A stretch of 64,000 bases of DNA from Mytilus edulis (lineage: Eukaryota). The translations under genes and the position numbers were made by a program. Below the pieces are notes generated by a model. It worked only from the letters and a program-made list of their open reading frames with translations. It was not told the DNA's origin and searched no databases. Each line of letters begins with the position of its first letter. The first letter of the stretch is position 1. Positions 1 to 64,000 of the stretch are shown piece after piece. The stretch lies in contig NC_092347.1 in the NCBI RefSeq assembly GCF_963676685.1, positions 6,262,001 through 6,326,000 of the forward strand, written 5' to 3'.

Positions 1-96
1 ATAACTTTTCAACAGATATAAACAAAATGGCATGTATACACTATAAAGACAAAGTAGTACAGCAAAAAGTAATAATTATGTGTCCTTTGATTTCAG

Positions 97-33400: not shown

Positions 33401-36400
33401 TTTTCTTTTTTCTCGGAATGATGAAGTAAGTATACGAGTAAGGAGACATGGTATGATTGCAATTAAGTGAGACAACTATCCACTAGAAGAGTGATTGTTT
33501 GTGGAAAATAAAGGAAACGTACTGTACGTACACTTTGGCCTTCAAAATGAGCAAATCATTATATTCAATATTATTGCAGTTATTACTAGAATATAAACTT
33601 AGAATATAAGTTCAGTTTTGTTTACTGTTGCTAAAGTTAATAAACAGTTTTAAACTTCTTTTATTTCTAATTTTAGATGTTTGTGTTTAATTGTTTCTAT
33701 TGGTAAAAGTTTTGTGTATTCTCGTTCTAAAATAACATTGTTTTAATTCAAAATTTTACATTCTTTCAAAATTTAAACATCTATCACCTTCAAAAATGAG
33801 CAAAATTCATATCAAGTCAAATAGCTATACAAGGTCCTGAAATGACAAATATAAATCATTTCAAACATTTGTCAAACATGTCAAGTGAGAAAACTTAAAT
33901 GGCTTGATTTATGTGCATATACAAAACAATGTACAAACAAACGACAACCACTGATTGCAATACAGGCTCCTGGATTGAGACAGGCACATACAGAAATTGG
34001 GGTGTGGTTGAACATGTTTGTTCAGGTGCCAAACTCTCCCCCTTATATGGGACATAGGAACAAACTGTAGAATTAGTTGAAAAGGTTTAACCCATGAGAT
34101 CCATACAAAGGATGTAAAAACCTTAAAAAAACTGAAAAACTATAAAAGTTATAAAAATCATGTACTAGTAATTTGCTCTGATAAGCAAAGGACATACATA
34201 CTTATATTACATGTAAGTTCCTTGATCATGTTGTTTGACTTTTAGCCAAGAAATCTAACCATAAAGATATAGATATCCTTGTAAATCACATGGGAGTTAA
34301 CTCTTTTTAAAACAAAAAAAATCTCATGTTGTTTGACTTTTAGCCAAGAAATCTAACCATAAAGATATAGATATCCTTGTAAATCACATGGGAGTTAACT
34401 CTTTTTAAAACAAAAAAAATCTCATGTTGTTCGAATCTTAGCCAAGAAACCCTAACCATAAAGATATAGATATCCTTGTAAATCACATTGGAGTTAACTC
34501 TATTTAAAACAAAAAAAAATCTCATGTTGTTTGACTCTTAGCCAAGAAACCTTAACCATAAAGATATAGATATCCTTGTAAATCACATGGGAGTTAACTC
34601 TATTTAAAACAAAAAAAATCTCATGTTGTTTGACTTTAGCCAAGAAACCCTAACCATAAAGATATAGATATCCTTGTAATTCACATGGGAGTTAACTCTA
34701 TTTAAAACAAAAAAAATCTCATGTTGTTTGACTTTTAGCCAAGAAACCCTAACCATAAAGATATAGATATCCTTGTAAATCACATGGGAGTTAACTCTAT
34801 TTAAAACAAAAAAAATTTCATGTTGTTCGAATCTCAGCCAAGAAACCCTAACCATAAAGATATAGATATCCTTGTAAATCACATGGGAGTTAACTCTATT
34901 TAAAACAAAAAAAATCTCATGTTGTTTGACTTTTAGCCAAGAAACCCTAACCATAAAGATATAGATATCCTTGTAAATCACATGGGAGTTAACTCTATTT
35001 AAAACAAAAAAAATTTCATGTTGTTCGATTCTTAGCCAAGAAACCCTAACCATAAAGATATAGATATCCTTGTAAATCACATGGGAGTTAACTCTATTTA
35101 AAACAAAAAAAATCTCATGTTGTTTGACTTTTAGCCAAGAAACCCTAACCATAAAGATATAGATATCCTTGTAAATCACATGGGAGTTAACTCTATTTAA
35201 AACAAAAAAAATCTCATGTTGTTCGAATCTTAGCCAAGAAACCCTAACCATAAAGATATAGATATCCTTGTAATTCACATGGGAGTTAACTCTATTTAAA
35301 ACAAAAAAAATCTCATGTTGTTTGACTTTTAGCCAAGAAACCCTTACCATAAAGATATAGATATCCTTGTAAATCACATGGGAGTTAACTCTATTTAAAA
35401 CAAAAAAAATCTCATGTTGTTCGAATCTTAGCCAAGAAACCCTAACCATAAAGATATAGATATCCTTGTAAATCACATGGGAGTTAACTCTATTTAAAAC
35501 AAAAAAAATCTCATGTTGTTTGACTTTTAGCCAAGAAACCCTAACCATAAAGATATAGATATCCTTGTAAATCACATGGGAGTTAACTCTATTTAAAACA
35601 AAATCTGCTGATACCCATGCAAAATTGTAATTCATCATTTATTTTACATGATTAGAATACCTCAGACTCCATGGAAGAGAAGCAGTATATAATAAAAACT
35701 GTTTTATTTGAACCAGTAGGGAATTGAAATCATTACCACCTGCAATCTACCATGAGATTGAGCACACACACTATTCAATTATTAATCTCTATAGATTCAT
35801 TTATTTTCATGGGTACCAATTTTCCCCACTATTGTGGAAAACAATCTGTGAACAATTTATATAACAGTCAGTATAACAGTGAGTTATATGCTATCCAATG
35901 CTACCTTACTGTACTATACACTTAACACCAACTTTAATATTGATGTTTTGTGAACAATTTATGGGTTTATATATTCAATGCTATTTACTGTACCATATAC
36001 TTAACATCAACTTATTGATTTATTTTCAGTGGTGTGGTGGGAACTATTTATGGTTTAATGATATCCAATGTCACCTTATTGTACAATACACTTAACATCA
36101 ACTAATTGATATATTTACAGTGGTGTGGTAGGAACAATTTATGGTTTAATGATATCCAATGCTATATTACTGTACCATACACTTAACATCAACTGATTGA
36201 TTTATTTTCAGTGGTGTGGTGGGAACTATTTATGGTTTAATGATATCCAATGCTACATTATTGTACATCAACCTTTTAGCCATGATCATGAGTGCTGTAG
36301 GTGTGGTCTCGTACATTGCCATGACAAAATCAAAGGTAATTTGAAGTTAAATAAACTTCATATATTTTATACATGTACAATGGTATTATACTAGCTTGTT

Positions 36401-38790
36401 TACTACAGAGATTGTAATTTTGTGCAACATAAAATGTTCAAATATCCTGACTGACTACAGTTCCCATCAACCTCTAGATCTGTACTGAGCTCATGATAAC
36501 TTGTATATATCTTGTTCCAACCTAAATAAAATTGACTACATACATTCTAAGAATTTACTTACAAATCAAAACACATCTGTGGAAACAATAAAGAATCAAA
36601 CAAGTTATTTATTTGGCAACAATGTTTTCACTATCCTGTAATTAACTAGGACTGGAATTCAATTTGTCCTAGAAAAAAATAATCATTTTCAATGGACACA
36701 TTTTTCAAGAAAGTCACAGAGTATAAAGCATGAGCATCAATTAACTTCAATTTAAAAAAAAATGGATTATATGTATAGCTTAAGATTATTGGAATATTCA
36801 GAACTTTGTGAGTTTATCTTGTGTCCAATTACTATTTCAGAGTAAACCAATGCTTCAGGTGTTATTTGGATCAATATTTTTATTACTAAACCACTGGTAT
36901 TGTGTGCGTATTGTGGTGCATGAAGGACAAGTTACAGAACAGTATGGACTTATGATGTTCTTCATCAGTTTAGTACTCCTAGCATCACCTGCTTTAGAAG
37001 TGGTATGACTTAAAAGTTTGCTTTCTACCTATAGAAAAGTGTGAGCTATGATAATCTGTTTGTTAACTTTTCTCTATTTAATCTTCATCATTGTAAACTA
37101 CGGTATAAAGTCAATCTCATTCTTCTAAGACCTTTTAAATATCAGCTTTTTCTTAAAAAAAATGACTAGAAATGAAAGTGTTAGTGTATTAATTTCATTT
37201 CAAGAGACATAATTCCAGTAACTTGTGTAAAAACAAATTGATCAGATCTGAAACATTGTCCAAAACAATTGCTGATATGTAAGTTTCATAAATACCAAGC
37301 AAGAATTGTACAATATTGAGTCTTACAGCGTAATATTCTACAGAATTAACATTTATAACTCCAGTAAAAATAATTGATCAGTACTTATATTAAAACTCAT
37401 GTTAGACATTGATCATATTTAAACCTTTGATATAAATTGGATAAAAAATTGACTCAAGAAAGTTATTTGAAGTAAGAATTGTAAATAAACTTTTTTACCT
37501 ACAGATAGAATGCATGAAAGATAAAAGTGCAGAGGGTATGTCTGTAGCAATGATTGTTGGAAACCTCAGTTGTTCTTTAGCCTGGTTGTTTTATGGAATT
37601 CTACTCAAAGATTTCTTTGTCTATGTAAGTCACAAGTTATATCAATATACTCAGTATTCATGCTGTATGACAAAGACATCTATTCACCATTTACACATTT
37701 ACAGTATGGAATAGGACATGATTTCAGTTTAAGCCATCAAGTTAAAGGTTGTTAAAATGTGCCCATGCTAAAACAATCTTGAAAACCCTATTTTTCAATA
37801 TTGTGGATTCATTAATTTTTATGGATTGTGTAAATATTCATGGGTCACTTGTCCCAAGAAAAAAATCCATGAAAATTGGTATCCCATGAATTATAACAAA
37901 TACACAGTACATCTTAATTTAGAATAATGATCTGGTATATTGTACACAACTTTAAAGTATTTTTATTAATATTTGTACAATTACCTTAGACCTTTTATAT
38001 AATAAGAAAATCATGATTTAGAAATACTTCCCTTTCAACCACAACTATATTACCATATAGAATAAGGATATACTTATAATTTCCAACGGTTTGATAGTAT
38101 AGTGGGAAAGTACTGTAATAACAGTACCAGTGAATACTATATTGATACAGGTACTTCTTATGCACACGTATATATACATATCACATGATACTGATATTAA
38201 GCAGGAATATTTTCACTTGTTGGTCACTTCCAGCCAAGCATCAGACTGGACAACAGTGAAATAAATTTCATTTTCAATTGAATTGTTATTCTAATTTGTA
38301 TTTAGTAGGGATTAGATATTTTACTAAAAAGTAACTTGATTTATTACTTATTCCATATAGTATATTTAATTCAGTTATACACAGTCCAAGTGTAACTCTC
38401 GAGGTGGTCTTCTGAGCATTTGGGTTTGGACACAGGTTTCCCACATTTTCCACTTTATTTAAAATGTAGTCTTTTGATAGTTTTTCTATTGAATTCTTTA
38501 ATGAAAGTTTATTTTATTGTGCATTGATATTTATGCTTCATGTATATTGTGTATATCAATTATATTTATATTAATAAAATATGGGGTCCACCAGTATTGC
38601 TGGTCTATTGGCTATATAAATAGTATTGAGTATTTATTAGTATGCCTAGAAATAGTAATTAGTACAGTTGATACCATTATAGATCCTAATGTTATTATTG
38701 CAGGCACCAAACATAGTTGGAGTAGCTACAAACCTTGGAAAAGCTGTTGTAAAGGTCATTTATGGTGGAAAGAAAGATAAAACAGCTTAA
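30475..38790 (+). CDS. SLC50A1: SWEET sugar transporter (SLC50A1-like, two MtN3/saliva repeats), 212 aa
   Basis: Exons 30475-30542, 33348-33425, 36212-36335, 36841-37002, 37505-37624 and 38704-38790 total 639 nt in frame. Motifs NVPF, IYG, YIN, LASP, KSAEGMS, AWLFYGILLKDFFVYAPNIVG. Six-exon layout matches vertebrate SLC50A1 as recalled. Confidence 0.88.
31021..32559. mobile_element. PIF/Harbinger-type MITE (TAA TSD) carrying nested insertions, SWEET intron 1
   Basis: TIRs ggcagcaaccatttgattt / aaatcaaatggttgctgcc flanked by TAA on both sides. Confidence 0.8.
31098..32189. mobile_element. Nested non-autonomous DNA transposon (caggggcggat TIRs, GTAAT TSD)
   Basis: gtaat|caggggcggatt ... ggatccgcccctg|gtaat. 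Confidence 0.8.
34226..35602. repeat. Tandem minisatellite, ~99-bp unit x ~14, with alternating A/B variants
   Basis: tagccaag recurs at 34243, 34341, 34439, 34539, 34637, 34736 and onward. Variants tttgactttt and ttcgaatctt mostly alternate. Confidence 0.95.
35885..36272 (+). repeat. 91-bp tandem repeat spanning the SWEET exon-3 acceptor
   Basis: cag|TGGTGTGGT..GGAAC at 36030, 36121 and 36212 (91-bp spacing), plus two degenerate partial copies at 35885-36000. Confidence 0.9.
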
Positions 38791-39134
38791 TGTTATTTGC
38801 TATTAACAATAACTGTTATAGAAATCATAATGGGTAATGCTTCTATAACGGAAATCAAATATAACATTTACTTGTTGAAATATATTTTAAGTTTGTTTTA
38901 TATGATCAGAAACATGTTTGTCAAGTAAATAACAATGAGACCATCTGAAATAGCCAATAAATAAATTTAAGGAATCTTTTTTGCACTTACATGACTATAA
39001 AATACCATGGTATAAAATAATTATCTAACAACACTAATAACATAACTACACTATTGGTAAAATGGCAAATTCAAATTATTAATATATATAACTGACAAGG
39101 AAATGTCTTTAATTCTGAGTGATTTTATTTGGTA

Positions 39135-41620: not shown

Positions 41621-44600
41621 AACTAGAGGCTCTCAAGAGCCAGTGTTGCTCACCTTGGTCTATGTGCATATTAAACAATGGACACAGATAAATTCATGAC
41701 AAAATTGTGTTTTGGTGATCATGATGTGTTTGTAGATCTTACTTTACTGGACATTCTTCTTGCTACAATTATCTCTATCTATAATGAACTTGGCCCAGTA
41801 ATTACAGTGGAAAATATATTCTAAAAATTTACAAAAATTTATTGAAATTGTTAAAAAATGACTATAAAGGGCAATAACTCCTTAAGGAATAAACTGACAA
41901 TTTTGGTCGGTCATGTTGACTTAATTGTAGATCTTACTTTGCTGAACATTATTGCTGTTTACAGTTTATCTCTATCTATTATAATATTCAAGATAATAAC
42001 CAAAAACTGCAAAATTTCCTTAAAATTACTAATTCTGGGGCAGCAACCCAACAACAGGTTGTCTGTTTTGTCTGAAAATTTCAGGACAGATAGATCTTGA
42101 CCTAATAGATTATTTTATCCCATGTCAAAGGAGTATGTTCAGTAAGGTCCTAAAATGGCCCCCTTTTTTAGCGTAAATTTCAAATTCGGATTTATTGACC
42201 AATATCACAATAAATTAAAACTAATATAGTGACTAGATAGGAAATAAGCTATTTTGTTGAAAACTTTACGTTTCTACGTTACATTATGACGTCACAAGTT
42301 GCACTCATATTGATTTTCACGAAAAAATCAATGAAAATAGGTAAATTTCAATAGATTATTGGACAGGAAACATAGAGCGCATACGTCGACAACAAAGATC
42401 TTTTAAAATAATGTTTGTGAAGACATTTCACATGTCTTATTTGAATATTAAGTTTGTCGACACCTGCGCTCTATGTTTCCTGGTCCTTAATTTGGTTGAA
42501 ATCGTGTTCATTTTGTCAAATTTCACCAATATCCCTTTTCTTGACCTTTTTCGGATGTAAAAATCAACGTCTTAGACTTAAACTTTGAAAAACACAGTTC
42601 TGTTTAACTTTCTCACATGTATTTAATGCAACTTAAAACCTTTATTGGCTTGTAACTATGAACTTTATAATTGGGGCCAAATATGGCACTTACCGAACTT
42701 AGTCCTTTGCTATAAATACTTTGGTTTTAGAGTTATAAGCAAAAATCTACATTTTACCCCTATATTCTATTTTTAGCCATGCGTCTATCTTGGTTAGTTG
42801 GCAGGGTCACGCCACACATTTTTAAAACTAGATACCCAAATGATGATAATGGCCAAGTTTGGTTAAAATTGGCCCAGAAGTTTCAGAGGAGATTTTTTTA
42901 AAAGAATACTAAAATTTTAGAACTAGAGGCTCTAAAGAGCCTGTGTCGCTTACCTTGGTATATGTGAATATTAAACAAAGGACGCAGATAGATTCATGAA
43001 AAATTGTGTTTTGGTGATGGTGAAGTGTTTGTACATCTTACTTTACTGAACATTCTTGCTGCTTACAATTATCTTTATCTATAATGAACTTGGCCAAGTA
43101 GTTTCAGTGGAAAATGTTAGTAAAAATTTACAAATTTTATGAAAATTTTAAAAAATTGACTATAAAGGACAATAACTCCTTAGGGGGTCAATTGACCATT
43201 TCAGTCACGTTGACTTATTTGTAAATCTTACTTTTCTGAACATTATTGCTGTTTACAGATTATCTCTATCTATAATAGTATTCAAGATAATAACAAAAAA
43301 CAGCAAAATTTCCTTAAAATTACCAATTCAGGGGCAGCAACCTAACAACCAGTTGTCCAATTCATCTGAAAATTTTAGAGCAGATAGATCTGGACTTGAT
43401 AAACAATTTTTTCTATTGTCAGATTTGCTCTTAATGCTTTGGTTTTTGAGTTATAAACCAAAAACTGCATTTTACCCCTATGCTCTATTTTTAGCCATGG
43501 CGGCCATCTTGGTTGGACAGCCGGGTCACCGGACACATTTTTTAAACTAGATACCCCAAAGATGATTGTGGCCAAGTTTGGATTAATTTGGCCCAGTAGT
43601 TTCAGAGGAGAGGATTTTTGTAAAAGATTACTAAGATTTACGAAAAATGGTTAAAAATTGACTATAAAGGACAATAACTCCTAAAGGGGTCAACTGACCA
43701 TTTTGGACCTGTTGACTTATTTGTAAATCTTACTTTGCTAAACATTTTTTCTATATACAGTTTATCTCTATCTATAATAATATTCAAGAAAATAACCAAA
43801 AATAGCAAAAATTTCCTTAAAATTACCAATTCAGGGGCAGCAACCTAACAAAGGGTTGTCCGATTCATCTGAAAATTGCAGGGCAGATAGATCTTGACCT
43901 GATTAACAATTTTACCTTGTCAGATTTGCTCTAAATGCTTTTGTTTTTGAGTTATAAGCCAAAAACTGCATTTTACCCCTATGTTCTATTTTTAGCCATG
44001 GCGGCCATCTTGGTTTGTTGTGCGGGTCACCGGACACAATTTTTAAACTAAATACCCTAATTATGATTTTGGCCATATTTGGTTAAATTTGGCCCAGTAG
44101 TTTCAGAGGAGAAGATTTTTGTAAAAGATAACTAAGATTTACGAAAAATGGTTAAAAATTGACTATAAAGGGCAATAACTCCTAAAGGGGTCAACTGACC
44201 ATTTTGGACCTGTTGACTTATTTGTAAATCTTACTTTGTTTAACATTTTTTCTATTTACAGTTAATCTCTATCTATAATAATATTCAAGATAATAACCAA
44301 AAACAGCAAAAATTTTCTTAAAATTACCAATTCAGGGGCAGCAACCTAACAACGGGTTGTCCGATTCATCTGAAAATTTCAGGGCAGTTAGATTTTGACC
44401 TGATAAACAATTTTACCCCGTCAGATTTGCTCTAAATGCTTTGGTTTTTGAGTTATAAGCCAAAAACTGCATTTTACCCCCATGTTCTATTTTTAGCCAT
44501 GGCGGCCATCTTGGTTGGTTGGCGGGGTCACCGAACACAATTTTTAAACTAGATACCCCAATGATGATTGTAACCAAGTTTGGTTGAAATTAGCCCAGTA

Positions 44601-45728
44601 GTTTCAGAGGAGATTTTTGTAAAAGTTAACGACGGACGACGACGACGACGGACGCCGGACGCCAAGTGATGAGAAAAGCTCACTTGGCCCTTCGGGCCAG
44701 GTGAGCTAAAAATGGTTTAAAATTGACTATAAAGGGCAATAACTCCTTAATGGGTTAACTGACAATTCTGGTCATGTTGACTTATTTGTAGATCTTACTT
44801 TGCTGAACATTATTGCTGTTTACAGTTTATCTCTATCTATAATAATATTCAAGAAAATAACCAAAAACAGCAAAATTTCCTTAAAAAAATTACCAATTTA
44901 GGGGCAGATAGATCTTGACCTGATTAACAATTTTACCCCCATATCAGATTTGCTCTAAATGCTTTGGTTTTTGAGTTATAAGCCAAAAACTGCATTTGAC
45001 CCCTATGTTCTATTTTTAGCCATGGCGGCCATCTTGGTTGGTTTGGAGGGTCACTGGACACAATTTTTAAACTAAATACCCCAATGATGATTGTGGCCAA
45101 GTTTGGTTAAATTTGGCCCAGTAGTTTCAGAGAAGATTTTCGTAAAAGAATACTAAAATTTACGAAAAATGGTTAAAAATTGACTATAAGGGCAATAACT
45201 CTTAAAGGGGTTAACTGACCATTTCGGTCATGTTGACTTATTTGTAAATCTTACGCTGCTGAACATTATTGCTGTTTACAGTTTATCTCTATCTATAATA
45301 ATATTCAAGAAAGTAACCAAAAACAGTAAAATTTCCTTAAAATTACCAATTAAGGGGCAGCAACCCAACAACGTGTTGTCCAATGCATCTGAAAATTTCA
45401 GGGCAAATAGATCTTGACCTAATAAACAATTTTAACCATGCCAGATTTGCTCTAAATGCTTTGGTTTTTGAGTTATAAGCCAAAAACTGCATTTGACCCC
45501 TATGTTCTATTTTTAGCCATGGCAGCCATCTTGGTTGGTTTGGCAGGTCACCGGACACAATTTATAAACTAGATACCCCAATGATGATTGTGGCCAAGTT
45601 TGGTTAAATTTGGCCCAGTAGTTTCAGAGAAGAAGATTTTTGTAAAAGTTAACGACGACGGACGACGACGACGGACGCCAAGTGTTGAGAAAAGCTCACT
45701 TGGCCCTTTGGGCCAGGTGAGCTAAAAA
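41621..45728 (-). mobile_element. Two nested HINE/Helentron-type elements of one family with ~500-bp internal tandem repeats (inner copy 42921-44710)
   Basis: aactagaggctct..aagagcc at 41621 and 42921. (gacg)n microsatellite and agctcacttggcccttYgggccaggtgagct hairpin at ~44630-44706 and ~45652-45724. Unit marker tgactataaagg at 41859, 43157, 43659, 44160, 44724 and 45181. Confidence 0.85.
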
Positions 45729-50000: not shown

Positions 50001-53000
50001 ATTTTGGTCTCTTGTGGACAGTTGTCTCATTGGCAATCATACCATACTTCTTTTTTTTTTATAGCTACTGAATCATTATCTGCTTACCCCTGATGGTGGT
50101 CCCATAAATCCTTGGGGGAAAGATGGAAATGAAGGAAACTGTGGCTGTGAAAAAACAAACATTCATTTATTGTAATTTCTATAAAAAAATATTGACATGA
50201 ATAATATATAGGGTTTTTGCATAAATGTTTGGTAAATATATGTCTTAAAGGCATTGTCAACTTAAGTGACCTGTGGTTTTTAATATTTTACTTCCTCAAG
50301 TGAAGAAGGTCATGGGTTTAAATAGATAGATCACCTGATCAAACTAAAATTTAAATAAAAATAATAATTTCTGCTTCAGACCGCATTTTGAGGTATTCCA
50401 GAGTAAACTGATTTAATCTGAAATCACAATAAAGTGTCTGTGTCCTGACATTTGAGTTTTTAGTTAAAAATAAACATTGTGTGTATCAGTCTTGTACAAA
50501 TCTTAGTGTGCTAAATATTGACTAAATCAATGCTACTTGAGGTTAATGTTGATGTCATTGCCATTATCATCATCTTCTTGAATTGCACATGACATGATTT
50601 TCATTAACATTTGTGTTTTTCTATTGATTAAAACATGCACATTATTTACCATTGAAACACCAGGAAATGGAGGCATAAATGGCATTCCTGGCATAAATGG
50701 AGGATTAGTACTACTACTGGCTGAATGTTTCTTCTTTCTATCAGGTGCTGGACTCTGCCTTGCACTCCAATCCATACTATCTGACTGTACAAATATAAAT
50801 CATGCATTTATAAAATAAATTTAAGTAGACAGTTTAAACATATATTTAAATACTTATCAATAGTGAGTTATCAACAGTATATGTATATTTAAATTTGAGA
50901 TAACAGTTTATGATAATTTTTAATTTAAGTAGACAAAGTTTTAACCTTTATCTGAATGGTAGCTTTTTAAACTTGTTATATCATATTACAATATAAGGCT
51001 TTTTTATACGAATTTAATTTAAAAGTAGATATTTGTATTTACTTCTGACTTCTGTCTTTGTTTCTGTTTTCTGGTTGGCTGGAGTAGTTCTGTAAATTCT
51101 TTCTCTTCCTCATTACCATATCCTCTGTATCGTATGATACATGTCTCTGCTTCCTCGTCTATGTCTATAATCTCAGCATCATATGTCAGGTCATCTTCTG
51201 TAAACACAGCTCTACACTGATCACCTACTTTCCAAGGACACTAAAAATAAGGTAACATATTCAGGTATCAAACAATTACTGTATTTATGTAAGTTTAGAA
51301 ATTATTGCGTGCTTTAGTATTGCGATAACTAAAGAATAGACAAAAATGCAAGATTAAGTAATGCTATTTCAAGAAAATCTGTATACAGTTGTGAGGGCCC
51401 TCATGGGGTTTTTGATTATGTGATTACTTGGCCGTTTTTTTAATGATTATTTGATTATTAAGCCAAATATTTCATGATTATTTGATTACCTAGGACTGTA
51501 TTTTTAGTTTATGATTATTTGATTACTAAAGATAAGCAAATATTTAATGATTATGTGATTATATTGGCCAAAAAATGGTGATTATGTGATTACTAGGACC
51601 CCCCATGAGGGGCCTCAGTTGTATATCAGTATGTATCAAATATCAGAATGCGAGTTCATTTTATCCCTATACTCACTAATAATTGCATTATTCACAATAA
51701 CAAAAAACTCACAATAATTTCTACACTTACAGTAATCTATATATTCTGTAACTCTAATTTTGGCCAGTAATTTATTTTCACAACTTCTGCAAATTGGAAA
51801 ATAATGTGAATATTTATCAGCACAATTACCTAAAACTTGGACCTTCCCTCATCTGAAAACTTTTAAGTTAGTTTGAAAATCACAAAATTATATTGCAGCA
51901 AACTAAGATAGACATGATAGAAAGGGCTAAATGTGATATAAAGTACCCGTAAAAATAAGTACTTTTTTTTACTGTATATATAAGACACCTTTTTTTTCTG
52001 ATTTTTTTTCTCTGAAAATGTATAACTTGAAATCAAATATAATGTACAGTAAAGATATCTTATATAATAAAGGGATGCACATTTTTCTGGATTGGCATAC
52101 CATCAAAAAATAAATACTCTGGGCTATTTCAGAAAAAAAAACCAAAATGGGGTGTAGGTTTGAAAGGCACTTTATTGTTTACTTGGTGACCTCTTACAAG
52201 CCATACAAAGATAATTAAAGGGCCTTCCAACCCCCACCCATATATCTGATAGTTTAGTTTATTTCAAACCAAAAGCAATACAGCTTATAGGTATATCATA
52301 AATGTGTACATGTATAACATAACAGAACATTTTAAATACAATAGGAGGCAAGACTACATAGTATAAATCATTCAGAAGATTGTCATGAAAATTTTATATC
52401 TGTGGCGTATTTCAGATATTTTCCTAAATTAGATAATTCCGAAACATTCTTTGTTGACAATAATTGAACTAATTTAAAAACAGATGCATTTGTATAATAA
52501 TACCTTTTTATATACATTTTTCTAATATTGTCATATTTTGGACATTTTAAAATAAAATGAAACTCATCCTCGATGTCACCCTGGTTACATAAGATACATA
52601 ATCTTTAATTTTTTGCTTTTTTAATGAATCTACCATATTCAATATTCAATTTGTGTGAACACAGTCTATACTTTGTTAAAAATCTAATACATTGTGGACT
52701 TAAATTTTTTGTCAAATAAAACTGCAATTGAACATTATCCACAAGGTGTTTATAGATAGTACATTTTGATGATGAATCGAAAAACATATTTCTTTCTTGA
52801 AGAAAATGGTCAATAAGCCTTTGTTTGAATAAAATAATAAATGCTTCTTCGCATACAACATTCTGTGCATACCACACATGTCCAAAACCTAGGCTAAGTA
52901 ACATACATTTAACATTATTAACCCATGATGACTTATTTCCTGATTCACACTCATCATACATATCATTATATATAGCATTAAGAATACAATTTCTCGTCCG

Positions 53001-56000
53001 TAATAGACGAATCCAATATTTTAATATTTTTACTTTCCGAGATATCAATAAAGGAAATCTTCCCAACTCAGAATAAACCATTGCAGTAGCAGTGGATTTT
53101 TTAACAGTCAAAATATTTTTACAAAATTCTATATGAAGTTTTTCTATATCAGATGCATTATGAAAACCCCATATTTCACTTCCATATAATAAAACAGGTG
53201 ATACATAGACATCAAATAAATACAATTTTGTTTGTACATTTAAACACATATGTTTTATTTTACCATACAACATTGATAAACATTTTCTGCCTTTGGCAGC
53301 AATATTTAACTGAGTTTGATTAAACTTTGCATTGTAATATAACATAACACCCAGATACAAATAATGATCAGCAACTTCAATAATTTCGCCATTATAAAAC
53401 CATTTTTCATCGCTTCGTAATTTACCACCGTTTCTGAAAACAACCACCTTAGTTTTGCTTGTGTTTACAATAAGTTTCCACTTTTTACAATAATTATGTA
53501 GTGAATTCAACATATTTTGCAACCCATCAATAGTTTCGGAAAATATAACAGTGTCATCTGCATACATCAATAAAAACAACGAAAGTTCTTTTATGTCTAC
53601 TGGTAGACATAAGCTATTAATAAACTCATTTTCAAAATCATTTAAAAACATTGAAAATAGTATAGGTGATAATGGTTCCCCTTGCAATACTCCTTTTTCT
53701 ACAGAAAATATGTCAGAAAATTCACCTTTAAATTTTACACAGCTCATAGAATTATCATATAAAGACTTAATAATTGAAAAAAGTTTACCACTAATACCAC
53801 ATTTTGCAAGCTTATAATATAAAAAAGCACTTTTATAATCTATAAAACAACGATAAAGTTTTTTCTTCAATCCCAAATATTTAGTAATAATTGATTGTAA
53901 GGCAAAAATAGCATCAGTTGTGCCATGACCGGGTCGAAACCCAAACTGAGCATCAGTTAAAATGTCATTTTCGTTAGCCCACAATGTAAGCCTTTCATTA
54001 ATAATAGTAGTAAAAAGTTTGCAGAAACAACTGCTCAGTGTTATACCTCTATAATTATCAGTAACATTTACATTATTTTTTTTATGCACAGGAATAAGTA
54101 TTCCTTTACACCACTGTTTCGGCATATATCCAGTTTCAAAAATTACATTAAACAATTGCACAATAAAAGGTACGAGAATGTCTTTAAAATGTATAAAATA
54201 CTCATTTAACAAATTGTCAGCACCTGGCGATTTGTTACATTTTAACTTCAACAAAATTTTACATACTTCTTCTTGAGTAATAGACGCATCAAAGTTCGTT
54301 ATACACACATTTTTGGTTATCAGCTTCAACATCATCGGTTATATTAGAAGTGGTTTCAGCAGTTAGGTTTTTGAAATGATTATAAAAATCTGACGACTTT
54401 AAATTACAATTAGTGTTCTTCTTTCCTTTTTTAAATACATCAAAAAACTGTTTCGGATTATGTTTTCGCCAATAGTCAATTTGGTTTCCTTCATATCTCA
54501 AGTAGTTTCGTTTAACGCGATTTTCATACGATTTGTAGTTCTTTTTTGACTCAATTAGAATTTGGCGATTCAAATTATTTCTGTTCCTATTGAAACGCCT
54601 AATATTACAATGATATATATAATACAGTTCTTTGCATCTATCGTCGAACCATGGTTTATTTGGCAGTGAGTTTTTATTGCTTTTAATGTTCGTAGCATTC
54701 CTTTTAATACAATAACGTTTTTCACAAAATGGTTTGAAGACAGTATTCAATGTTTCAGTATGTTTTATAACAGTATTCTCAATACTTTGTTCTGTACACA
54801 CCATTTGCTCAACGTTACTGCTCATTGTGTCCATATGACTAATCAAACTAGTTTTCATTTCCGTAATTTTGTCCGGATCCCATCTGTATGTGCTGTGAAA
54901 AATATTATCATCACTTAAATTGAATGTTTTTATACCAGTATCGGCTATTTCAAGCGTTAAAATAGCGATAGAATGTTATCTTTTGAAAGTCTAAATGATG
55001 GTCCAATATACAGATAGATAAAAAAAAATCTTTTTTTGTATTTAGAAATTTCAAGGGCCCAAAAAAAGACCTTGTCAAGTCTTCTGCTTTATTCATCAAC
55101 TACAACCATAAAGTATGCCAATTTTCAAAATACCTTTTTCTTGTTTTTATGTTTCTTTTTCCTCTTCCTTTTCCTTTTCTTATTTATATCTTGTTTGTTT
55201 GATGTCTGTGATTCGTTATCATTAATAACAGAACCATTTACTTTGGCCTGTAAAGAAAACATTTTAATAAATGGAATACATTAAATAACAGATCAACAAA
55301 AAATTATATCCCTATTTCTATAATGAAATTTAAGTAATCCTTCAACCACTAAAGTTCAACAGTACAAATGGCCTCTAAAATCACTTATAAAAACAAACGT
55401 TCAATCAAGGTTTACTTTCATCATTATTATAGTGTTTAACTATGAAATTAGAAATATAGAGTGTGTCACATTGTGTTATTATGCTATGGTAAATTTTTGT
55501 AATCTTGTCTTTCTTGTTCAGTCAGGGTATTTACTTAAACAAGTGATTTTCTAAATCACTGATTCAAGTAACATTATTTCCATAAAGGTTGGAAGTTAGA
55601 GTTGTCTTTCTTTAATAATCACCTATTTAAGTAGTACAAATTAATCACTAGACGAAGTGATTTAATATTAGTGTAGCTTTAAATATAGAATACTAATGAT
55701 CCAGGGACTAATTATGTTTCTAAACTTATCAGAACCAACATCTGTGTTGTCTGGGATGACCAGGTCATTTCAGACAACATCTGTGTTGTCTGGGATGACC
55801 AGGTCATTTCAGGTGATGACCTTGTACTGAATCTAGGATAATGACATAAAAATCACTTGTATAAATATCAGACCTCAATTTCCTTCCCAAAAATTACTTT
55901 TTTAAGTATCATTCTTTTAATAACCCCCACTAATTTCAACACCCCCAAACAGTGAAATTTTTATCGCGAACAGTAGAATTTTATTACATAATCTGAAAGA

Positions 56001-58955
56001 TGAAACCTTGAACTTCACAGGAAAAATACTCCCACTGCTGTGAAAAATCTTTTAAGAAAGTATCAGTTCATTATGTAAAGCCATTATTATAGCATTTTTT
56101 CAACTAAAATAGAATTTTCAGGTAAATGATAACATCAAAGGCATAAACCTTGCTACTTAAAAGAAGCAAAAGGTTCATATTTTTAAATTTTACTAACTAA
56201 AAGATGTTATTTAAATCTATGTGTTTAAAATTTTGAAAAAACTATAAAATTCCAATTTGTGACAAAACCTCAAATTTGCTACTTAAATAAGTGATTTAAA
56301 AATCACATATTTCAGTAAGTTCCCTGACTGTTGTTTGATTGTGTGCTTTTTGTCGTTTTTTGGTCTCTTGTGGAGAGTTATCTCATTGGCAATCATACCA
56401 CATCTTCTTTTTAGATATTTGTCTGTATGCCTTTTTGTTTTTCTTTGTTTGCTTTAACAGTGATTAAGATTATAACAGAATGTTGACAGCTACACCCTTA
56501 TTACTTTTTTACCTATTATGTCTGATAGTTTTGTTCACATATTGTTGTCAATATAATGAAATTTTATGTGACTGTCATACAAGTGAGAGGTTTAGCTACA
56601 TGTACATAGAAAAATGCCTGTACCAAGTCAGGAATATGACAGTTGTCATCCATTCCTTTGATGTGTTTTTGATTTTTGCCAATCGATTAGACTTTCTGAT
56701 TTTATTTTCCTCTGAGTTCAGTATGTTTGTTAATTTACTTTAAATTTTCACATTAAAACTTTATCGTGTTTTGCAGCACGGGGAATGAAATGTGAAAGTA
56801 ACTGAAAATTAAAGCCAGCAAAGTGATGGCTATTTATAACTGATTCATTTTCAGTGTCTGTCATTACATGTGTATACTGTGGTTTCATTATCTTTCATAC
56901 AAGATTGAAAAATATGGTGGTTTAGAGTCTTGTTTTAACCTTTGATAAGTAATAGTATGAAAATTATCAAAACAAAACTTGTTTGAAACATAAATAGCTT
57001 AATTGTTACAAAAAAATGTAGGCCATATATATTTATAATCTAAAATGAATTCTCTATAAGAAAAAAATTGTAAAAAGGCTTACTTTCACTAGGTTCACAG
57101 CATTGTCATAAGCTTTTATTAATGCTGTATCATCCCACAGATCACTGTCACTCTCTGCAGCCTGAAACACAAAAGTAGGAATCATATTATTAATGTAATA
57201 TCAAGTATAAATATATAGTACAAATACATTAACCTTATTACCAAAATCATCTAAAATCTATTCTTACACTAACGAAGGAAAACCTAAAAAAAAAATTAAT
57301 AACATATTGGGAGTTCAGTGGTGTTCTGTTCCAAAGTTGACACATTAATAGCCTTTCAAGACATTATAATTATTTAGACTAAGAATGGATGTGAAATTGC
57401 TTTGAAAATTACGGGAAAACATGATCATGGTTTTCTGTAACTGAAGAAGAAATTCCTTAATTGACTAATTAAATGCCAAAATAACTTTACTAGATAAAAA
57501 AGATGCCCATTTCATTAAATGCTTATACACCTTATGGCTTTTGTCCGCCATTACCAGACATAACAAAAGTTCCCGTAAATTTTGACGTCATATGATAATA
57601 GACAATATGTAATAATACCATGAATACTTTAATAAACATTCTAATATGACGTGCTTCTTTCGCTTTGTAAACAACACTGTGTGAAAATTCTCGATATATC
57701 TATACTTAGCGCAGAATCAGAATGAATGTTATTGTTAAAATATACCTCCCACGTAAATCTACATGCATTTGAATCTATTTGCAAACGCTTTGCCGATTTT
57801 ATTGTATTAGAAATTGTAATAAAACACAAGACAAAAGAACTTTTATTCTTATTCGGATGCATAATAAAAAGAATTAATATACTGCAACTAGTTGTGTTTA
57901 TTTCAGTTACATTTTGTGCAATGTCAATTTCATCATGAAACACTCTCACCACAATCAGGGGTTCCTTAAGGGATGAAAATAAGCTCATATTTATGTTACG
58001 GTTTTTTAGTCTGTCAAAAATATAAACTTTTTGGTAACCATTGAAGTTCGTATAATATTGTATTAAAATGGAATTCTGAGGTAGGTTTTGTTTTATTTTC
58101 TATTCTATTAAATTATTCGCATATTAATTGATTTCAGCGAGTCAACTAAGCTCCTTCGTTTCGAAATTTACACATGGCCTGGGCTGTGATATTCGCTAAT
58201 TTTATCCCTCGCTAACGCTCAGGATAAAATTCTAATATCGCGGACCAGGCCATGTGTAAATTTCCAACAAATCTATGGCTTTCATGAATTATTTCTTAAA
58301 TATCTGATGCCACAATGAAAAAGTGATTGTTGTATGGCGTCAAAAGTTCAAGCAGGACATATTTCCCAATAGCGACAGATGTATTGTCACTGATAAGGGG
58401 CAAAATTATTTGACTTTTTCCAATACACCTTATCACTAATCCCGGATGACCTGGCCGCTTAAACTTTTGAGGCATACATTACAACAATCACCTTTCCATT
58501 TTGGCCTCAGATATTCAGTTTTATGACGTCAAAATTTTACTGGAACCTGTGTGATATCCAGTAATGGCGGACAAATAGCGATAAGGTGCATAGGTGCTGA
58601 AGTGACCAATTGCCAATTTGACTTGTTCCCTGGACCTCAGCAAGTAGCACCTGCCACAAAAAGCGCTTTGATGTAAACTATTAATTTCATTGGAGATAAC
58701 CATCTGGGAACTATCCACAAAGTGGCATTGCATATAATTTATTTGTTGACTTTTTGAGGCAAGGCCCAGGGGAACGTACTTACAACGTCTCTCCCGTAAT
58801 GTTTTAAGGGTCATCTAGTTAGTTTTACAGAAAAATGTACACCATTTTGAAGAAACTTATTGGTTTTCCTAATTTATAAGATTCATTCTTTTTTAATTTA
58901 ATCAAAATGTCACCTGGCCTCGTTGAAAAAGTACAGTTCCAGCTACTGAGGCCAT
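47060..58955 (-). CDS. SMN1: Survival motor neuron protein, 269 aa, 8 coding exons
   Basis: Exons 58955-58914 ([14 protein letters not shown]), 57161-57084 ([17 protein letters not shown], Gemin2-binding), 55247-55134 (Lys-rich), 51240-51043 (Tudor [14 protein letters not shown]...YRGYGNEEE), 50784-50650, 50144-50088 (Pro-rich), 48186-48061 (YG box [17 protein letters not shown]) and 47119-47060. 810 nt, all phase 0, GT/AG ends. Confidence 0.95.
47342..47580. mobile_element. Small MITE with TTAA TSD (Kolobok-like) in the last SMN intron
   Basis: ttaa|ggtggtatctaacac ... gtgttgggtaccacc|ttaa. Confidence 0.8.
47688..48145 (-). repeat. 91-bp tandem repeat x5 of the SMN YG-box exon 3' end plus 5' splice site
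   Basis: CAG|gtatgttga with exon-end G at 48061, 47970, 47879, 47788 and 47697. Copies are nearly identical. Confidence 0.95.
49860..50060. repeat. SINE-like interspersed repeat (related copies ~19980-20125 reverse, ~56340-56412)
   Basis: Shared block tggtctcttg.gga.agtt.tctcattggcaatcatacca at several positions in this window. Confidence 0.6.
51393..51616. mobile_element. MITE with 6-bp TSD (AGTTGT) and internal tgatta repeats
   Basis: agttgt|gagggccctcatgggg ... ccccatgaggggcctc|agttgt. Confidence 0.8.
52253..54966 (-). mobile_element. 5'-truncated CR1/L2-group LINE (RT fragment) in an SMN intron, sense to SMN
   Basis: Frameshifted ORFs 54289-54858 and 52605-54335 with [29 protein letters not shown] and YADD. 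3' tail aaataaactaaac. Candidate TSD GATAG at 52248-52252 and 54967-54971. Confidence 0.9.
55736..55812. repeat. Direct tandem duplication (~39 bp x2)
   Basis: caacatctgtgttgtctgggatgaccaggtcatttcag occurs twice in a row. Confidence 0.9.
57528..58588. mobile_element. Non-autonomous DNA transposon with CACC termini and nested hairpin element, SMN intron 1
   Basis: caccttatggcttttgtccgccattac ... gtaatggcggacaaatagcgataaggtg. Internal palindrome aaatttacacatggcctgg...ccaggccatgtgtaaattt at ~58164-58263. Confidence 0.7.
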
Positions 58956-59200
58956 TTTTGGCAGAGAACCTATCGTCAGATGAAACGACAAATTTAATTG
59001 GTTAAACTTAATATTTCAACCAATGAGAAACTGTGTTACATAAACGTAGCACGTGTTTTGCTCTTTTGCTGGAAAGTAGAAAAAGTGTACATTTCCGGTT
59101 AAAGATCTAAAACACCTTACACCAAAAAAATTGTTATTGTAAGTAATAACTGCTAAAATCTACTGTGTAACAACGTTCAGAATTGTAACCCAGGTTAAAA
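58956..59200. promoter_or_regulatory. Putative bidirectional promoter of SMN (-) and SUGP1-like gene (+)
   Basis: Opposed CCAAT boxes (attgg ~58998, ccaat ~59020), E-box cacgtg at 59050, ETS-like ttccgg ~59093, candidate + strand UTR-exon donor gtaagt at 59139. Confidence 0.55.
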
Positions 59201-59329
59201 GTTGCGTAAATTAACACCAGTCTGATTGCTCACTTTATTTTACAGTGTATATATACATTAGTCATTATTACCAAAATGAATATAATTTGCCGACGACTAA
59301 AAAAAAATTATATTCTAAAGGTCCATCAA

Positions 59330-61680
59330 CTATCTATCTATCTTCCCGTGAAGGAGTGGACTCATTTTTGAGTGTATATACTCCAGGGTGAGTGAACAGC
59401 AAAAAGTATTTACAGTTAAAATGAGATCTGTATGTACAGTTTAAATCAGTGCTGTAGTTTGCTTCTCTCTACGAGAGAAGCTCTACTGTGATAGTCGAGT
59501 TGACATATTTATAGACCCTCATTGATAGGATTTCAACCTCCTGTGTTTAGATGTGGAGTAGTGTCAACACGCTGACGTCTTGGATAGCATGTCGAAAATG
59601 TTTTACAGACGGGGAAGCTTGGATGTCTGGAGGTATGTTGCATACCTGTCAACCTGTGACGATGAAAATGCAGGTCATGACCTGCATTGAAGAATCAAAT
59701 CTCAGGTCATAATGCGTACAAACTTTTTCAAGCTGAATTTCAGGATTTATGGTACATTTTCTTATAATGTATATCCCAAAACATCAATGCATGTTCACTT
59801 GGTTAAGTCATTTTAAATCTTATTTATTATTATTTCATTACACTTTTAAAGATTTTTATTAACTTGTGGATCACAGTCTTATGTCCTTTACTTTTTGTCA
59901 TCATCTAAATTTTATTTTTAAATACTACTAGCCTTTATCATACCATGTAGAGGTATTACATGTATGAACATTCATCTCTCAAATGACAGGGAAATTAGAC
60001 TATGATAAAATATAGTAACACAGTTAAAGGAAGTATAAATGTAAAAAATAATTTTCAACTTTTTTTAAAAAATTGTATAAAGGTATAAAAATAATGAAAA
60101 GTTATTTTTCAATATGTATTTGAATTTTATATTATTATGATTTAATCTTTTTCACCCATAAAATGTAAATATAAGGAATAGTTTTGAATGGTGACAAATA
60201 AGGGGAAGTAACTCTTAGTTGAAATATCTTTGTAAAACAACAGGGCAATTTATTTACGACCTATTAAAGCTAAGGTAATTGGTGTTAATCAACAGTGTGT
60301 TTGACACCAAAGCTGTCAAGTGAAGCCATGCACTTAATGGGTCACTTAATTTGACAGTTTACATAGCTAGATGAACTGCATGTTTATGGAAGAATTACGA
60401 ATTTGCCGGTATTTCAAAGGAATATTACTTATGAAAATCAATCTCAAGGCTAAGAAATACGGGTGAAATCGGGTCATTTTCGGAATTTCAGGGTTATTTC
60501 AATGACCCGGCGGGTGATCCCTCAGAATTGTGAAAATCTCGGGTCACACCCGCAGAATCCGGGTCAGTTGACAGGTATGATGTTGTTCCAGGATATGATG
60601 GTGGAAGGAATGAATGAGTATTTGAAGCAATCCAGTTTGGCCCTGATCTGTCTGATGTTATTAGACTTGGAACCACAGGTTCTGGTGTTATGGTGAATGA
60701 GCAGGTGGTGAACAGGTACTTCTACGACATGATTTATAATTTTGTAGAACATGATAACTCTGTTCCTGACTCTTCTGTGTTCCAGTGGTTCTCAACCTAG
60801 TTGCTGAGTAATTTTGGTTACGCAACCAGGTTCACTTGAGAAGTAGTCCCCCATTGCAAATCTGGCAGCTTGGCGTTGTACATTTTCGAGTTGTTAGATT
60901 TGCTGTTGACGGTAGGGATCCCATACAGCACTGGCATATTTGAGGACAGGCCTCACTAAAGTTGTGTAGGCTTGGCTTTTAACTTCCTGAGGAAAACTCC
61001 TGGGGTTCCTACATAGGAATCCAACAGATCTGGTGGCTTTTGCTGTGGTCTGGTTTACATGCTCGTTAATGTACATGATGTATAACCGAAGGTATTTCCC
61101 ACCTAGGACACTTTCACGGGTGTGGCCATGCAGATGGTAATCGCATATGATGGGTTGGCGTTTCTTACTAATGTGGATAGTGGTACATTTCTGTGGATGG
61201 GATGACATTTGCCAGTCATTTTCCCATTTTCTAGCTTATCTAGGTCGTCTTGCAGCTTGGTGGAATTGCTGGTGGATCTAATAGGACGATACAACAGGAA
61301 GTCATCAGCAAAAAGTTTCACACTAGAATTAACAGATTCTGGGAGGTCGTTTATGAAGACGAGAAAGAGCAGGGGTCCCATTACTGTATCCTGTGATTAG
61401 CCAGAAACTACCTTTGCTTCATCTGACATTGTTCCCTCCACTAGGACATGTTGTTTCCTACTGTTCAGGAAGCTCTCCACCCATTTGAGAGTAGAGTCAC
61501 TAACTCCGTAGAATTTGAGCTTATGGAGAAGTCACTTGTGTGGCACCTTATCAAAGGCTTTTGCAAACAGGCAAAGTCTAATAATATTGCGTCAATTTGT
61601 TGGCCATTTGATAGTTCATTTGCCAGTTCATGAATTGTGGCAATCAGCTGTGTCTTGCAAGAGCGTTGAGCTAATGAACA
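59330..61680 (-). mobile_element. 5'-truncated, decayed RTEX-like LINE
   Basis: Fragments RSCKTQL..DAILLDFA, GPLLFLVFINDLP..FADD, RPVLKYASAVWDPY, FKYSFIPSTIISWNN. 3' (GATA)n tail at ~59330-59342. Clade assignment from recall. Confidence 0.8.
59641..60579. mobile_element. Non-autonomous DNA transposon, 13-bp TIRs, 6-bp TSD, inserted in the RTEX-like LINE
   Basis: atgttg|catacctgtcaac ... gttgacaggtatg|atgttg. Removing it restores the LINE frame WNNIPPDIQASPSVKHFR. Confidence 0.9.
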
Positions 61681-62150
61681 GTAGTACTTTATTTTCATAT
61701 GCGGCTTAACCTGTGTTTACTTATTTGGTATTTCAAGCAAAGATGTGGTGGGATTTGCTGAGAACTGAGGCTAATATATCACCCACTGGTGCACATAGTG
61801 CCAATGCAGGACATCTTGCCCTAAAGATCAGTCTGTTTGAGTCCAACACACCTTATTACTGTTTGTCTGCCATTGATGGACATCACAAAGGTCCTTGTAA
61901 AATTTTACGCCACAATGTATAAGTGATTGTTTCAAAAGTTCAAGCAGCGCCTATTCTTGGATAAACCAGCACATATATCAAAAGAGTGATAAGGGTGTTA
62001 TTACAGCTTATCTTTATCACTTCAAACCCTTTTGCTCAGAGATACATGTACATCATGCTTAATCTCAATGTATTTTAATTTAATGAAAGATATAAGGATC
62101 TGGATAATTTCTTTTATTTTTTTTTCAGCACTTGACTACCTTCAATCACC

Positions 62151-62347
62151 ATGGCAAATAAACCAAAACTAACCCCAAACACACTGGGTTACACTAACAC
62201 AACTTATAGAGAAAAAATGACACAGATGAGTGAACAGGAAAAGATAATTGAAGAAAAGAAGAGAAAAATTCTTGAAAAAATGAAGGCAGATGAAATAGCT
62301 GCAGTGACAAAAAATTCAGCAGCAACACCTACTTCTACACCACCAGT
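62151..62347 (+). CDS. SUGP1: First coding exon of a probable SURP and G-patch domain protein 1 (gene continues beyond the window)
   Basis: Strong acceptor ttttttcag at 62128, good Kozak (caccATGG), donor gtaagt at 62348. KMTQMSEQEKIIEEKKRKILEKMK resembles the recalled SUGP1 N-terminal helix (ILHQEELIAQKKREIEAKM). Exon is well supported; identity is tentative. Confidence 0.55.
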
Positions 62348-64000
62348 GTAAGTTATATGTTAGCCCTACTTCTACACCACCAGTGTAAGTTATATGTTAG
62401 CCCTACATCTACACCTCCCGTGTAAGTTATATGTTAGCCCTACTTCTACACCACCAGTGTAAGTTATATGTTAGCCCTACTTCTACACCTTCCGTGTAAG
62501 TTATATGTTAGCCCTACTTCTACACCTCCTGTGTAAGTTATATGTTAGCCCTACTTCTACACCACCAGTGTAAGTTATATGTTAGCCCTACTTCTACACC
62601 GCCAGTGTAAGTTATATGTTAGCCCTACTTCTACACCACCAGTGTAAGTTATATGTTAGCCCTACTTCTACACCACCAGTGTAAGTTATATGTTAGTCCT
62701 ACTTCTACACTGCCAGTGTAAGTTATATGTTAGCCCTACTTCTACACCCCATATGTTAGCCCTACTTCTACACCACCAGTGTAAGTTAAATGTTAGCCCT
62801 ACTTCTACACCACCAGTGTAAGTTATATGTTAGCCCTACTTATACACCGCCAGTGTAAGTTATATGTTAGCCCTACTTCTACACCGCCAGTGTAAGTTAT
62901 ATGTTAGTCCTACTTCTACACCGCCAGTGTAAGTTATATGTTAGCCCTACTTCTACACCGCCAGTGTAAGTTATATGTTAGCCCTACTTCTACACCGCCA
63001 GTGTAAGTTAAATGTTAGCCCTACTTCTACACCTCCTGTGTAAGTTATATGTTAGCCCTACTTCTACACCTCCCGTGTAAGTTATATGTTAGCCCTACTT
63101 CTACACCACCAGTGTAAGTTATATGTTAGCCCTACTTCTACACCGCCAGTGTAAGTTATATTATATGTTAGCCCTACTTCTACACCTCCCGTGTAAGTTA
63201 TATTATATGTTAGCCCTACTTCTACACCTCCCGTGTAAGTTATATGTTAATACATCCTTTAACACCTCCTGTGTAAGTTAGATGAAATAGCTGCAGTGAC
63301 AAAAAATTCAGCAGCAACACCTACTTCTACACCGCCAGTGTAAGTTATATGTTAGCCCTACTTCTACACCACCAGTGTAAGTTATATGTTAGCCCTACTT
63401 CTACACCGCCAGTGTAAGTTATATGTTAGCCCTACTTCTACACCGCCAGTGTAAGTTATATGTTAGTCCTACTTCTACACCGCCAGTGTAAGTTATATGT
63501 TAGCCCTACTTCTACACCACCAGTGTAAGTTATATGTTAGCCCTACTTCTACACCGCCAGTGTAAGTTAAATGTTAGCCCTACTTCTACACCGCCAGTGT
63601 AAGTTATATGTTAGTCCTACTTCTACACCGCCAGTGTAAGTTATATGTTAGCCCTACTTCTACACCACCAGTGTAAGTTATATGTTAGCCCTACTTCTAC
63701 ACCGCCAGTGTAAGTTAAATGTTAGCCCTACTTCTACACCACCAGTGTAAGTTATATGTTAGCCCTACTTCTACACCGCCAGTGTAAGTTATATGTTAGC
63801 CCTACTTCTACACCACCAGTGTAAGTTAAATGTTAGCCCTACTTCTACACCACCAGTGTAAGTTATATGTTAGCCCTACTTCTACACCGCCAGTGTAAGT
63901 TATATGTTAGCCCTACTTCTACACCACCAGTGTAAGTTATATGTTAGCCCTACTTCTACACCGCCAGTGTAAGTTATATGTTAGCCCTACTTCTACACCA
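62330..64000 (+). repeat. 37-bp tandem array (40+ copies, runs off the window) spanning the exon end and 5' splice site
   Basis: Unit cctacttctacaccRccaGT|gtaagttatatgttagc. The first unit is the real exon end. Confidence 0.97.

Follow-up and report, generated by a model that had tools for sequence, protein, structure and literature searches.

Exon–intron junctions copied in tandem in three neighbouring genes of the mussel Mytilus edulis

Introduction

Three neighbouring genes of the mussel Mytilus edulis each contain an array in which an exon edge, together with its splice signal, has been copied in tandem, from 3 to about 200 times. The genes encode the sugar transporter SWEET1, the SMN protein and a putative SUGP1, and they lie in a stretch of 64,000 nucleotides (NCBI RefSeq assembly GCF_963676685.1, contig NC_092347.1, positions 6,262,001 to 6,326,000 of the forward strand; G000:C4:6262001-6326000 in the coordinates used below for other loci of the genome), referred to here in its full length as the window. 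A preliminary description of this DNA had proposed that the arrays might act as a copy-number-tuned rheostat of splicing and nonsense-mediated decay (NMD), and had named a junction-seeding mutational process and simple neutral persistence as alternatives.

Three arrays at true splice junctions

Tandem Repeats Finder (TRF) resolves the arrays into head-to-tail units of minisatellite size (91 bp in SWEET1, 91 bp in SMN and 37 bp in SUGP1), and the end copy of each array is the gene's own junction, as given by exon models that match proteins P0080, P0005 and P0022, respectively. The TRF positions and the protein-matched models agree, which confirms the earlier claim that the arrays are real and that each straddles a true exon–intron junction. 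Recounting gives 3 acceptors in SWEET1, 5 donors in SMN and, in SUGP1, 43 donor motifs in the window and 206 over the full array, in line with the 3, 5 and more than 40 sites first reported. Use of a distal copy leads to an in-frame stop, as had also been noted, in 2/2 cases in SWEET1, 4/4 in SMN and, in SUGP1, the first 2 of ~205, which were the ones translated. Units of one array are 86–97% identical in sequence and units of different genes are unrelated, which points to a recent and local origin; a short matching sequence is common to both ends of the arrays. The named proteins closest to those encoded here come from Mytilus.

The features of SWEET1 are as follows.

30475 to 38790, plus strand: SWEET1 sugar transporter gene (P0080 match, MtN3_slv hits)
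30475-30542, 33348-33425, 36212-36335, 36841-37002, 37505-37624 and 38704-38790, plus strand: SWEET1 coding exons
35885 to 36267, plus strand: acceptor array (91-bp unit; TRF span 35952-36267, 3.5 copies)
34226 to 35603, strandless: purely intronic array in the same intron (99 bp, 14 copies, TRF)

The SWEET1 model is identical to the Mytilus SWEET1 protein P0080 at 209 of 212 residues. Its unit is composed of ~35 nt of intron end (a branch-point-like CTTAAC, a pyrimidine tract and AG) and ~56 nt of exon 3, and its acceptors are followed by exon starts at 36030, 36121 and 36212; a further copy upstream is decayed and lacks an AG. The stop met from a distal acceptor is a TAA after the exon part of the unit. 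Contig pieces assembled from RNA begin at ~36211, equal to the last acceptor, in all three RNA runs. The 99-bp array in the same intron, which the preliminary description omitted, is larger than the acceptor array and touches no junction, and thus forms an internal counter-example. The SWEET1 unit itself does not appear to be a dispersed repeat, as it gave a single match in a genome search that ignored common words.

In the case of SMN, the array lies on the donor side.

47060 to 58955, minus strand: SMN gene (P0005 match, SMN Tudor domain, YG-box)
58914-58955, 57084-57161, 55134-55247, 51043-51240, 50650-50784, 50088-50144, 48061-48186 and 47060-47119, minus strand: SMN coding exons
47688 to 48149, minus strand: SMN donor array (TRF, 91 bp, 5.1 copies)

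All 269 of 269 residues of the SMN model are identical to P0005. The unit comprises 82-89 nt of the YG-box exon and the first intron bases, which carry an in-frame TGA as the third codon past the donor. Donors follow positions 48061 (the one used), 47970, 47879, 47788 and 47697, and the stops met from the distal ones sit 82-355 nt ahead of the last junction, where NMD could act. In contigs from 3/3 RNA runs (three studies), exactly 318 nt lead from the Tudor exon to the last exon. This is the length predicted for splicing from the proximal donor, compared with 409 nt from the second one, and it shows that the proximal donor is used. The array was also sought in four DNA runs: in X6 and X11 the SMN unit-to-unit join sits in a circular unitig of 121 nt, whose depth is 3.8 and 2.2 times that of the flanks, and in X1 either end of the array is represented by collapsed pieces of high depth. 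X10 yielded no contigs and is not evidence of absence. The runs that show the array come from organisms A, B and D (three studies), with a loop-to-flank depth of ~2 to 4 across the three, contig depth not being copy number. The annotated M. edulis SMN protein P0012 likewise runs through the unit-to-unit join; this public model seems to contain an array unit together with frame changes, likely an annotation error caused by the array.

The SUGP1 array is by far the longest and runs beyond the window; its end was traced using 200 kb of downstream DNA.

62129 to 62347, plus strand: SUGP1 first coding exon (ATG at 62151; splices to extended coordinate 71912; P0022 reads across the join)
62328 to 64000 and on, plus strand: SUGP1 donor array (37-bp unit, TRF; ends at extended coordinate 70014)
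63272 to 63347, plus strand: another copy of the exon end, longer than the first (~76 nt), inside the array

The putative SUGP1 identity given in the preliminary description is borne out by Surp and G-patch domains and by exon-by-exon agreement with P0022, a protein encoded on a contig that was assembled from a sequencing run, and it is this protein only that shows the proximal joins. The unit consists of 20 nt of exon end and 17 nt of intron start, with a TAA two bases past the donor; as this stop lies in the first intron bases, it precedes every later donor. There are 45 copies in the window and ~207 in all (7.7 kb), and the longer copy at 63272-63347 marks a ~1-kb higher-order duplication, a second event begun in the same exon. 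SUGP1 has two further donor arrays, of 70 bp in 17 copies (L006:8039-9235, extended 82039-83235) and 53 bp in 33 copies (L007:4826-6588, extended 88826-90588), and the three together make ~10.6 kb of the gene junction repeat. The next gene, XPA (assigned by Pfam), bears a 46-bp donor array of 10 copies on the minus strand (L009:2359-2823, extended 106359-106823), so that four consecutive genes bear junction arrays.

Frequency across gene classes

An independent sample was drawn from loci around Pfam matches for myosin, RRM, kinase, chaperonin, DEAD, P450, LSM, PRP8, Sec63 and SF3b1, with ten pre-chosen 40-kb blocks as an additional sample. Exons were called by our own predictor, whose splice-site and coding models were trained on 281 Pfam-matched segments; it recovered 382/399 homology-anchored junctions, an optimistic figure since these are also training data, and called 68 exons on antisense strands. 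Four automatic junction calls (two coding repeats and two false exons) were removed by eye. Five arrays at exons that the predictor missed enter the count of unit length modulo 3 and separate 'manual' rows, and four enter the test of column variation (both below); a single event underlies two of the myosin rows, which are paralogous copies.

Arrays occur at 34 of the 1,438 predicted junctions (2.4%). Divided by class, the counts are 10/372 for myosin, 4/142 for kinase, 2/98 for P450, 2/230 for chaperonin, 4/54 for Sec63-helicase, 2/188 for RRM, 2/130 for DEAD and 8/224 for the core spliceosome. The last of these does not differ significantly from the myosin, kinase, chaperonin, P450 and Sec63-helicase classes together (22/896, P=0.36), nor do splicing genes with RRM and DEAD added (12/542, P=0.86), in what is a small sample and not the whole genome. 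A restriction of the arrays to spliceosome-related genes, among which the preliminary description had placed SMN and SUGP1, is accordingly not supported. Given a rate of 2.4% per junction, genes sized like the three in the window would bear one or more arrays with probabilities of ~21%, 28% and 46%, so that three array-bearing genes in a row are not rare genome-wide; three further arrays among ~34 neighbouring junctions amount to a mild local excess (P=0.046). A literature search, which covered few subscription papers, turned up no molluscan study that surveys junction-spanning arrays across a genome.

Spliceosomal and helicase genes, fetched whole, were also inspected by eye, which brought up the five arrays at missed exons (counts are given under Interpretation).

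G000:C6:30175001-30235000, C4:15140001-15200000, C10:1445001-1465000 and C10:1628001-1648000: loci of this inspection, with PRP8, SNRNP200, a helicase that we take to be ASCC3-like, and SF3B1

Some members of the sample are of interest in their own right. Two paralogous myosins (L047:141-1123 and L048:992-1111) have one 60-bp donor duplication in common, present in 17 copies in one and 2 in the other. Another myosin has a 62-bp acceptor array of five copies (L227:1218-1534), in which 61 nt of exon and a single further base make up the unit; to judge from its letters, the acceptor of the last copy may have been built from exon-derived pyrimidine-rich sequence, a possible case of a new 3' splice site made by duplication. 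A chaperonin subunit gene (G000:C12:3402883-3436000) holds more than ten purely intronic local arrays, one of 5.8 kb, and one junction array. Kinase-like open reading frames stand in tandem about every 1.8 kb at L103-L111 (C1, at least 10 copies) and L097-L101 (C3, at least 5 copies), and were excluded from the sample.

Unit length, stop codons and decoy sites

The preliminary description had observed that all three units have a length of 3n+1, which is correct for 91, 91 and 37 bp, and had set this beside the stops. Translation meets the stop among the intron bases of the first unit, so unit length modulo 3 has no bearing on it, and 3n+1 was rejected as a design feature: the third SUGP1 array, at 53 bp, is 3n+2, and over 39 arrays the three length classes hold 10, 12 and 17 members (P=0.37), with no 3n+1 bias. 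A stop precedes the second donor in 17/20 donor arrays, in all three length classes and across gene classes.

Decoy GT and AG are mostly intact. Within arrays, splice-core columns vary in 21/156 cases and other unit columns in 238/1494 (P=0.49), and this comparison gives no sign that decoy sites are either retained or removed by selection; of the rows, one is shifted by a single base, a second is wrongly set and does not enter the column count, and two have no aligned copies. Acceptor units are mostly exon in only 3/8 cases.

Are junctions favoured?

The evidence for an excess of arrays at junctions is modest and mixed. A model-based test was run after arrays had been collapsed; of the 136 that are locally unique and not at an edge, 30 span a junction where 14.0 would be expected to do so (P=3.5e-5). 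With multi-copy DNA masked, the expectation rises to 17.7 (P=0.002), the mask being incomplete (20% of non-coding DNA). The expectation was further weighted by guanine-plus-cytosine (GC) content because purely intronic arrays are themselves GC-rich (34.8% vs 30.3% for background, P=6e-7), and the ratio shrank with each correction, from 2.15 through 1.69 to 1.45. When dispersed satellites are counted, the result is 30/188 against 22.7 expected (P=0.066). Non-splicing genes alone give 19/82 against 10.7 expected (P=0.007). Overall, locally unique arrays show a 1.45- to 2.2-fold excess, and those with at least four copies a 1.9- to 2.9-fold excess. Earlier versions of the test, in which coding repeats were included, gave ratios of 1.6-4.3 and are superseded.

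Among homology-anchored junctions, 8/399 are spanned by an array. A histogram of array edges centred on 398 junctions shows no peak, with 7 edges in the 100 bases inside the junctions and 3-11 per 100-base flank bin, and a junction score finds no excess over random intervals (17/138 arrays vs 85/690 controls); unannotated exons and dispersed satellites make both of these tests less sharp. Within the ten pre-chosen blocks, 1/92 arrays pass the junction score, as do 6/460 controls, so that most genomic arrays do not span a junction.

Neighbouring features

SMN and SUGP1 are arranged head to head and may share a promoter, as the preliminary description assumed from this layout. A ~500-bp dispersed, satellite-like element in five copies, of very high depth in DNA runs, lies between the 3' ends of SWEET1 and SMN. 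The features of this neighbourhood are as follows.

58956 to 62128, strandless: SMN–SUGP1 head-to-head interval (ATGs at 58955, minus, and 62151, plus)
43090 to 45728: satellite-like element
53000 to 54900 (SMN intron) and 60500 to 61700 (between SMN and SUGP1): broken fragments, presumably reverse-transcriptase-like, of the long interspersed nuclear element (LINE) kind
19471 to 30006, minus strand, upstream of SWEET1: gene that we take to be TM6SF-like
91 to 591, plus strand: open reading frame, presumably ninjurin-like
27583 to 27704: 44-bp intronic array within the gene at 19471-30006, away from a junction

Interpretation

We think it probable that the arrays are 'mirage' minisatellites, near-neutral passengers that are seeded by microhomology and tolerated since the exon-proximal copy keeps the exon intact. 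The preliminary description had listed the rebuilding of an intact exon by one end copy as its neutral alternative, and this fits best with the spread over many gene classes, the proximal use in RNA and the lack of extra conservation at decoys. In the proposed model, slippage or the repair of a break between two short look-alike motifs, one exonic and one intronic, would duplicate 30-130 bp over the junction. The doublet would then expand and be homogenized by unequal exchange or slippage, in the manner known for minisatellites, with GC-richer units favoured, which in a 30%-GC genome would often be exon-derived. Use of the first donor or last acceptor would give a normal mRNA, from which the remaining copies leave with the intron; the evidence for proximal use is direct in the main SMN isoform, less so in SWEET1, and in SUGP1 consists of the protein match. 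Wholly exonic duplications would be purged and junction-spanning ones spared, and survival may depend on exon definition or 5'-to-3' scanning picking the nearest site. The stops of distal copies would be no more than the stop codons that introns usually contain, and the role of NMD would be limited at most to the removal of rare errors.

Several observations weigh against this account. Counted by eye, PRP8 has 7 arrays, SNRNP200 4, the ASCC3-like helicase 6 (one of 82 bp in 76 copies, 6 kb) and SF3B1 0 in its predicted part, although such counts, from whole-gene fetches only, are not comparable across classes. Part of the junction excess withstands both the repeat mask and GC weighting (30/136 against 20.7 expected, ratio 1.45, P=0.019), and among arrays of at least four copies 15/50 span a junction against 8.0 expected (P=0.008). 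Expanded donor units are mostly exon plus a short intron part (11/14, P=0.03, post hoc and with one row mis-set). The RNA evidence consists of contigs, from which rare isoforms are dropped, and the array alleles of the animals sampled are unknown, which leaves room for low-level distal use. Two pseudo-donors are used in the human genes CBS and IFI6 (6-16), according to the part of PMC1557585 that deals with them.

Some of these points would be accounted for if a junction-biased process seeded or preserved arrays that are themselves near-neutral, a reading that we consider possible and distinctly less probable than passive tolerance. Breaks or R-loops linked to transcription or splicing near 5' splice sites could raise the duplication rate or, in another variant, an exon-anchored founder copy could be kept by selection and re-seed the array. 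The excess of locally unique arrays and of those with at least four copies (non-splicing genes included), the exon-rich donor units, the second duplication begun again in the SUGP1 exon and the clustering of counts by gene (SUGP1 3, PRP8 7, ASCC3-like 6, SF3B1 0) are all in its favour, whereas the missing edge peak, the parity with random intervals, the P value of 0.066 with dispersed satellites, the ratio that falls with each correction, the incomplete mask and the reliance on our own exon predictor speak against it. The preliminary suggestion that repeats are seeded at junctions has weak and mixed support, with a 1.45- to 2.2-fold excess in the model tests and none in the two cruder ones. 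Taken further, and equally tentatively, mussels might hold thousands of junction minisatellites produced by such a process, at ~2% of junctions and in 1.5- to 3-fold excess, with expanded donor units that end at most ~20 bases from the 5' splice site.

That the arrays serve as variable number tandem repeat (VNTR) dials, in which more decoys divert more pre-mRNA to NMD according to the level of small nuclear ribonucleoproteins (snRNPs) and so tune SMN and SUGP1 output, seems very unlikely. Every tested distal site does give a stop placed where NMD could act, the decoy dinucleotides are largely preserved, and PRP8, SNRNP200, SUGP1 and SMN all carry arrays. However, there is neither a significant splicing-gene bias nor a 3n+1 bias, conservation is no higher at decoys than elsewhere in the unit, the main assembled RNA uses the proximal site, and the units are unrelated and locally homogeneous, unlike the deeply conserved regulatory elements discussed below; the rheostat favoured in the preliminary description is thus not supported. 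In the part of PMC1395315 concerned with it, the junction VNTR of human CBS is listed as going together with reduced activity, so that small quantitative effects of copy number remain conceivable. Finally, the arrays could be assembly artefacts or have inflated copy numbers, which we hold to be scarcely credible. Exact copy numbers, above all for the 7.7-kb SUGP1 array, do rest on the assembly, and the other runs cover SMN only, but the SMN unit-to-unit join is present in X6 and X11, X1 has the collapsed pieces, P0012 reads through the join, and the units carry patterned variants.

Such arrays at ~2.4% of the predicted junctions in the sample matter for annotation, as in the SMN model, and for short-read assembly. 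With its 207 donors, the SUGP1 array puts the choice of the first donor to an extreme test in nature. Should the junction excess hold genome-wide, it would bear on the origin of mirages and on intron gain or sliding. A junction-biased process, if true, would link splicing-coupled transcription to the birth of germline repeats and provide a natural allelic series, with up to 200 identical donors, for the study of splice-site choice.

Comparison with known systems

The arrays belong to a known type of repeat, and a single locus of this kind is ordinary. Autoregulatory elements of unproductive splicing, such as the U11 snRNP-binding splicing enhancer (USSE) of SNRNP48 and RNPC3 and the poison exons of U1-70K and SR protein genes, are deeply conserved, fixed and, as far as is known, confined to splicing factors. 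The mussel arrays resemble these elements in having, in splicing-related genes, extra splice sites whose use would give an NMD target, and differ in that they are repeats, homogeneous within an array, unrelated between genes and present in many gene classes.

The closest counterparts are the mirages of amphioxus, which were reportedly first described by Canestro et al. in 2002. In the sections of PMC3087553 and PMC3902484 that cover them, mirages are tandem duplications of exon–intron boundaries that leave splicing undisturbed and whose origin is called unclear, with examples in Adh3, the globins BflGb6 and BflGb9, troponin C and PGBD5. The mussel arrays share with those described there the donor- or acceptor-side boundary copies, units of tens to ~160 bp, many intact GT or AG and a normal mRNA. 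They differ in occurring in a mollusc, in reaching ~207 copies, and in coming with a sample-based rate of ~2.4% and an enrichment test; length polymorphism, shown for amphioxus mirages in the same sections, is merely hinted at in the mussel.

Donor-spanning VNTRs are also found in human genes, including F7 intron 7 (37 bp, 5-9 copies), CBS intron 13, 6-16 (IFI6), LMNB2 and PDGF, and the authentic first donor alone is used in F7, LMNB2 and PDGF, as far as the relevant part of PMC1557585 goes. In both species the first unit spans the donor and is repeated down the intron; compared with the human cases given there, the mussel arrays are common rather than limited to a handful of genes, include acceptor arrays, and show no distal use in contigs. 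Human segmental duplications, in turn, contain variable internal tandem repeats at exon–intron boundaries; in the account given in part of PMC2812944, these often provide young paralogs with new introns or alternative transcripts. Here too a minisatellite has expanded at exon–intron boundaries, and in contrast to those paralogs the mussel genes tested splice normally.

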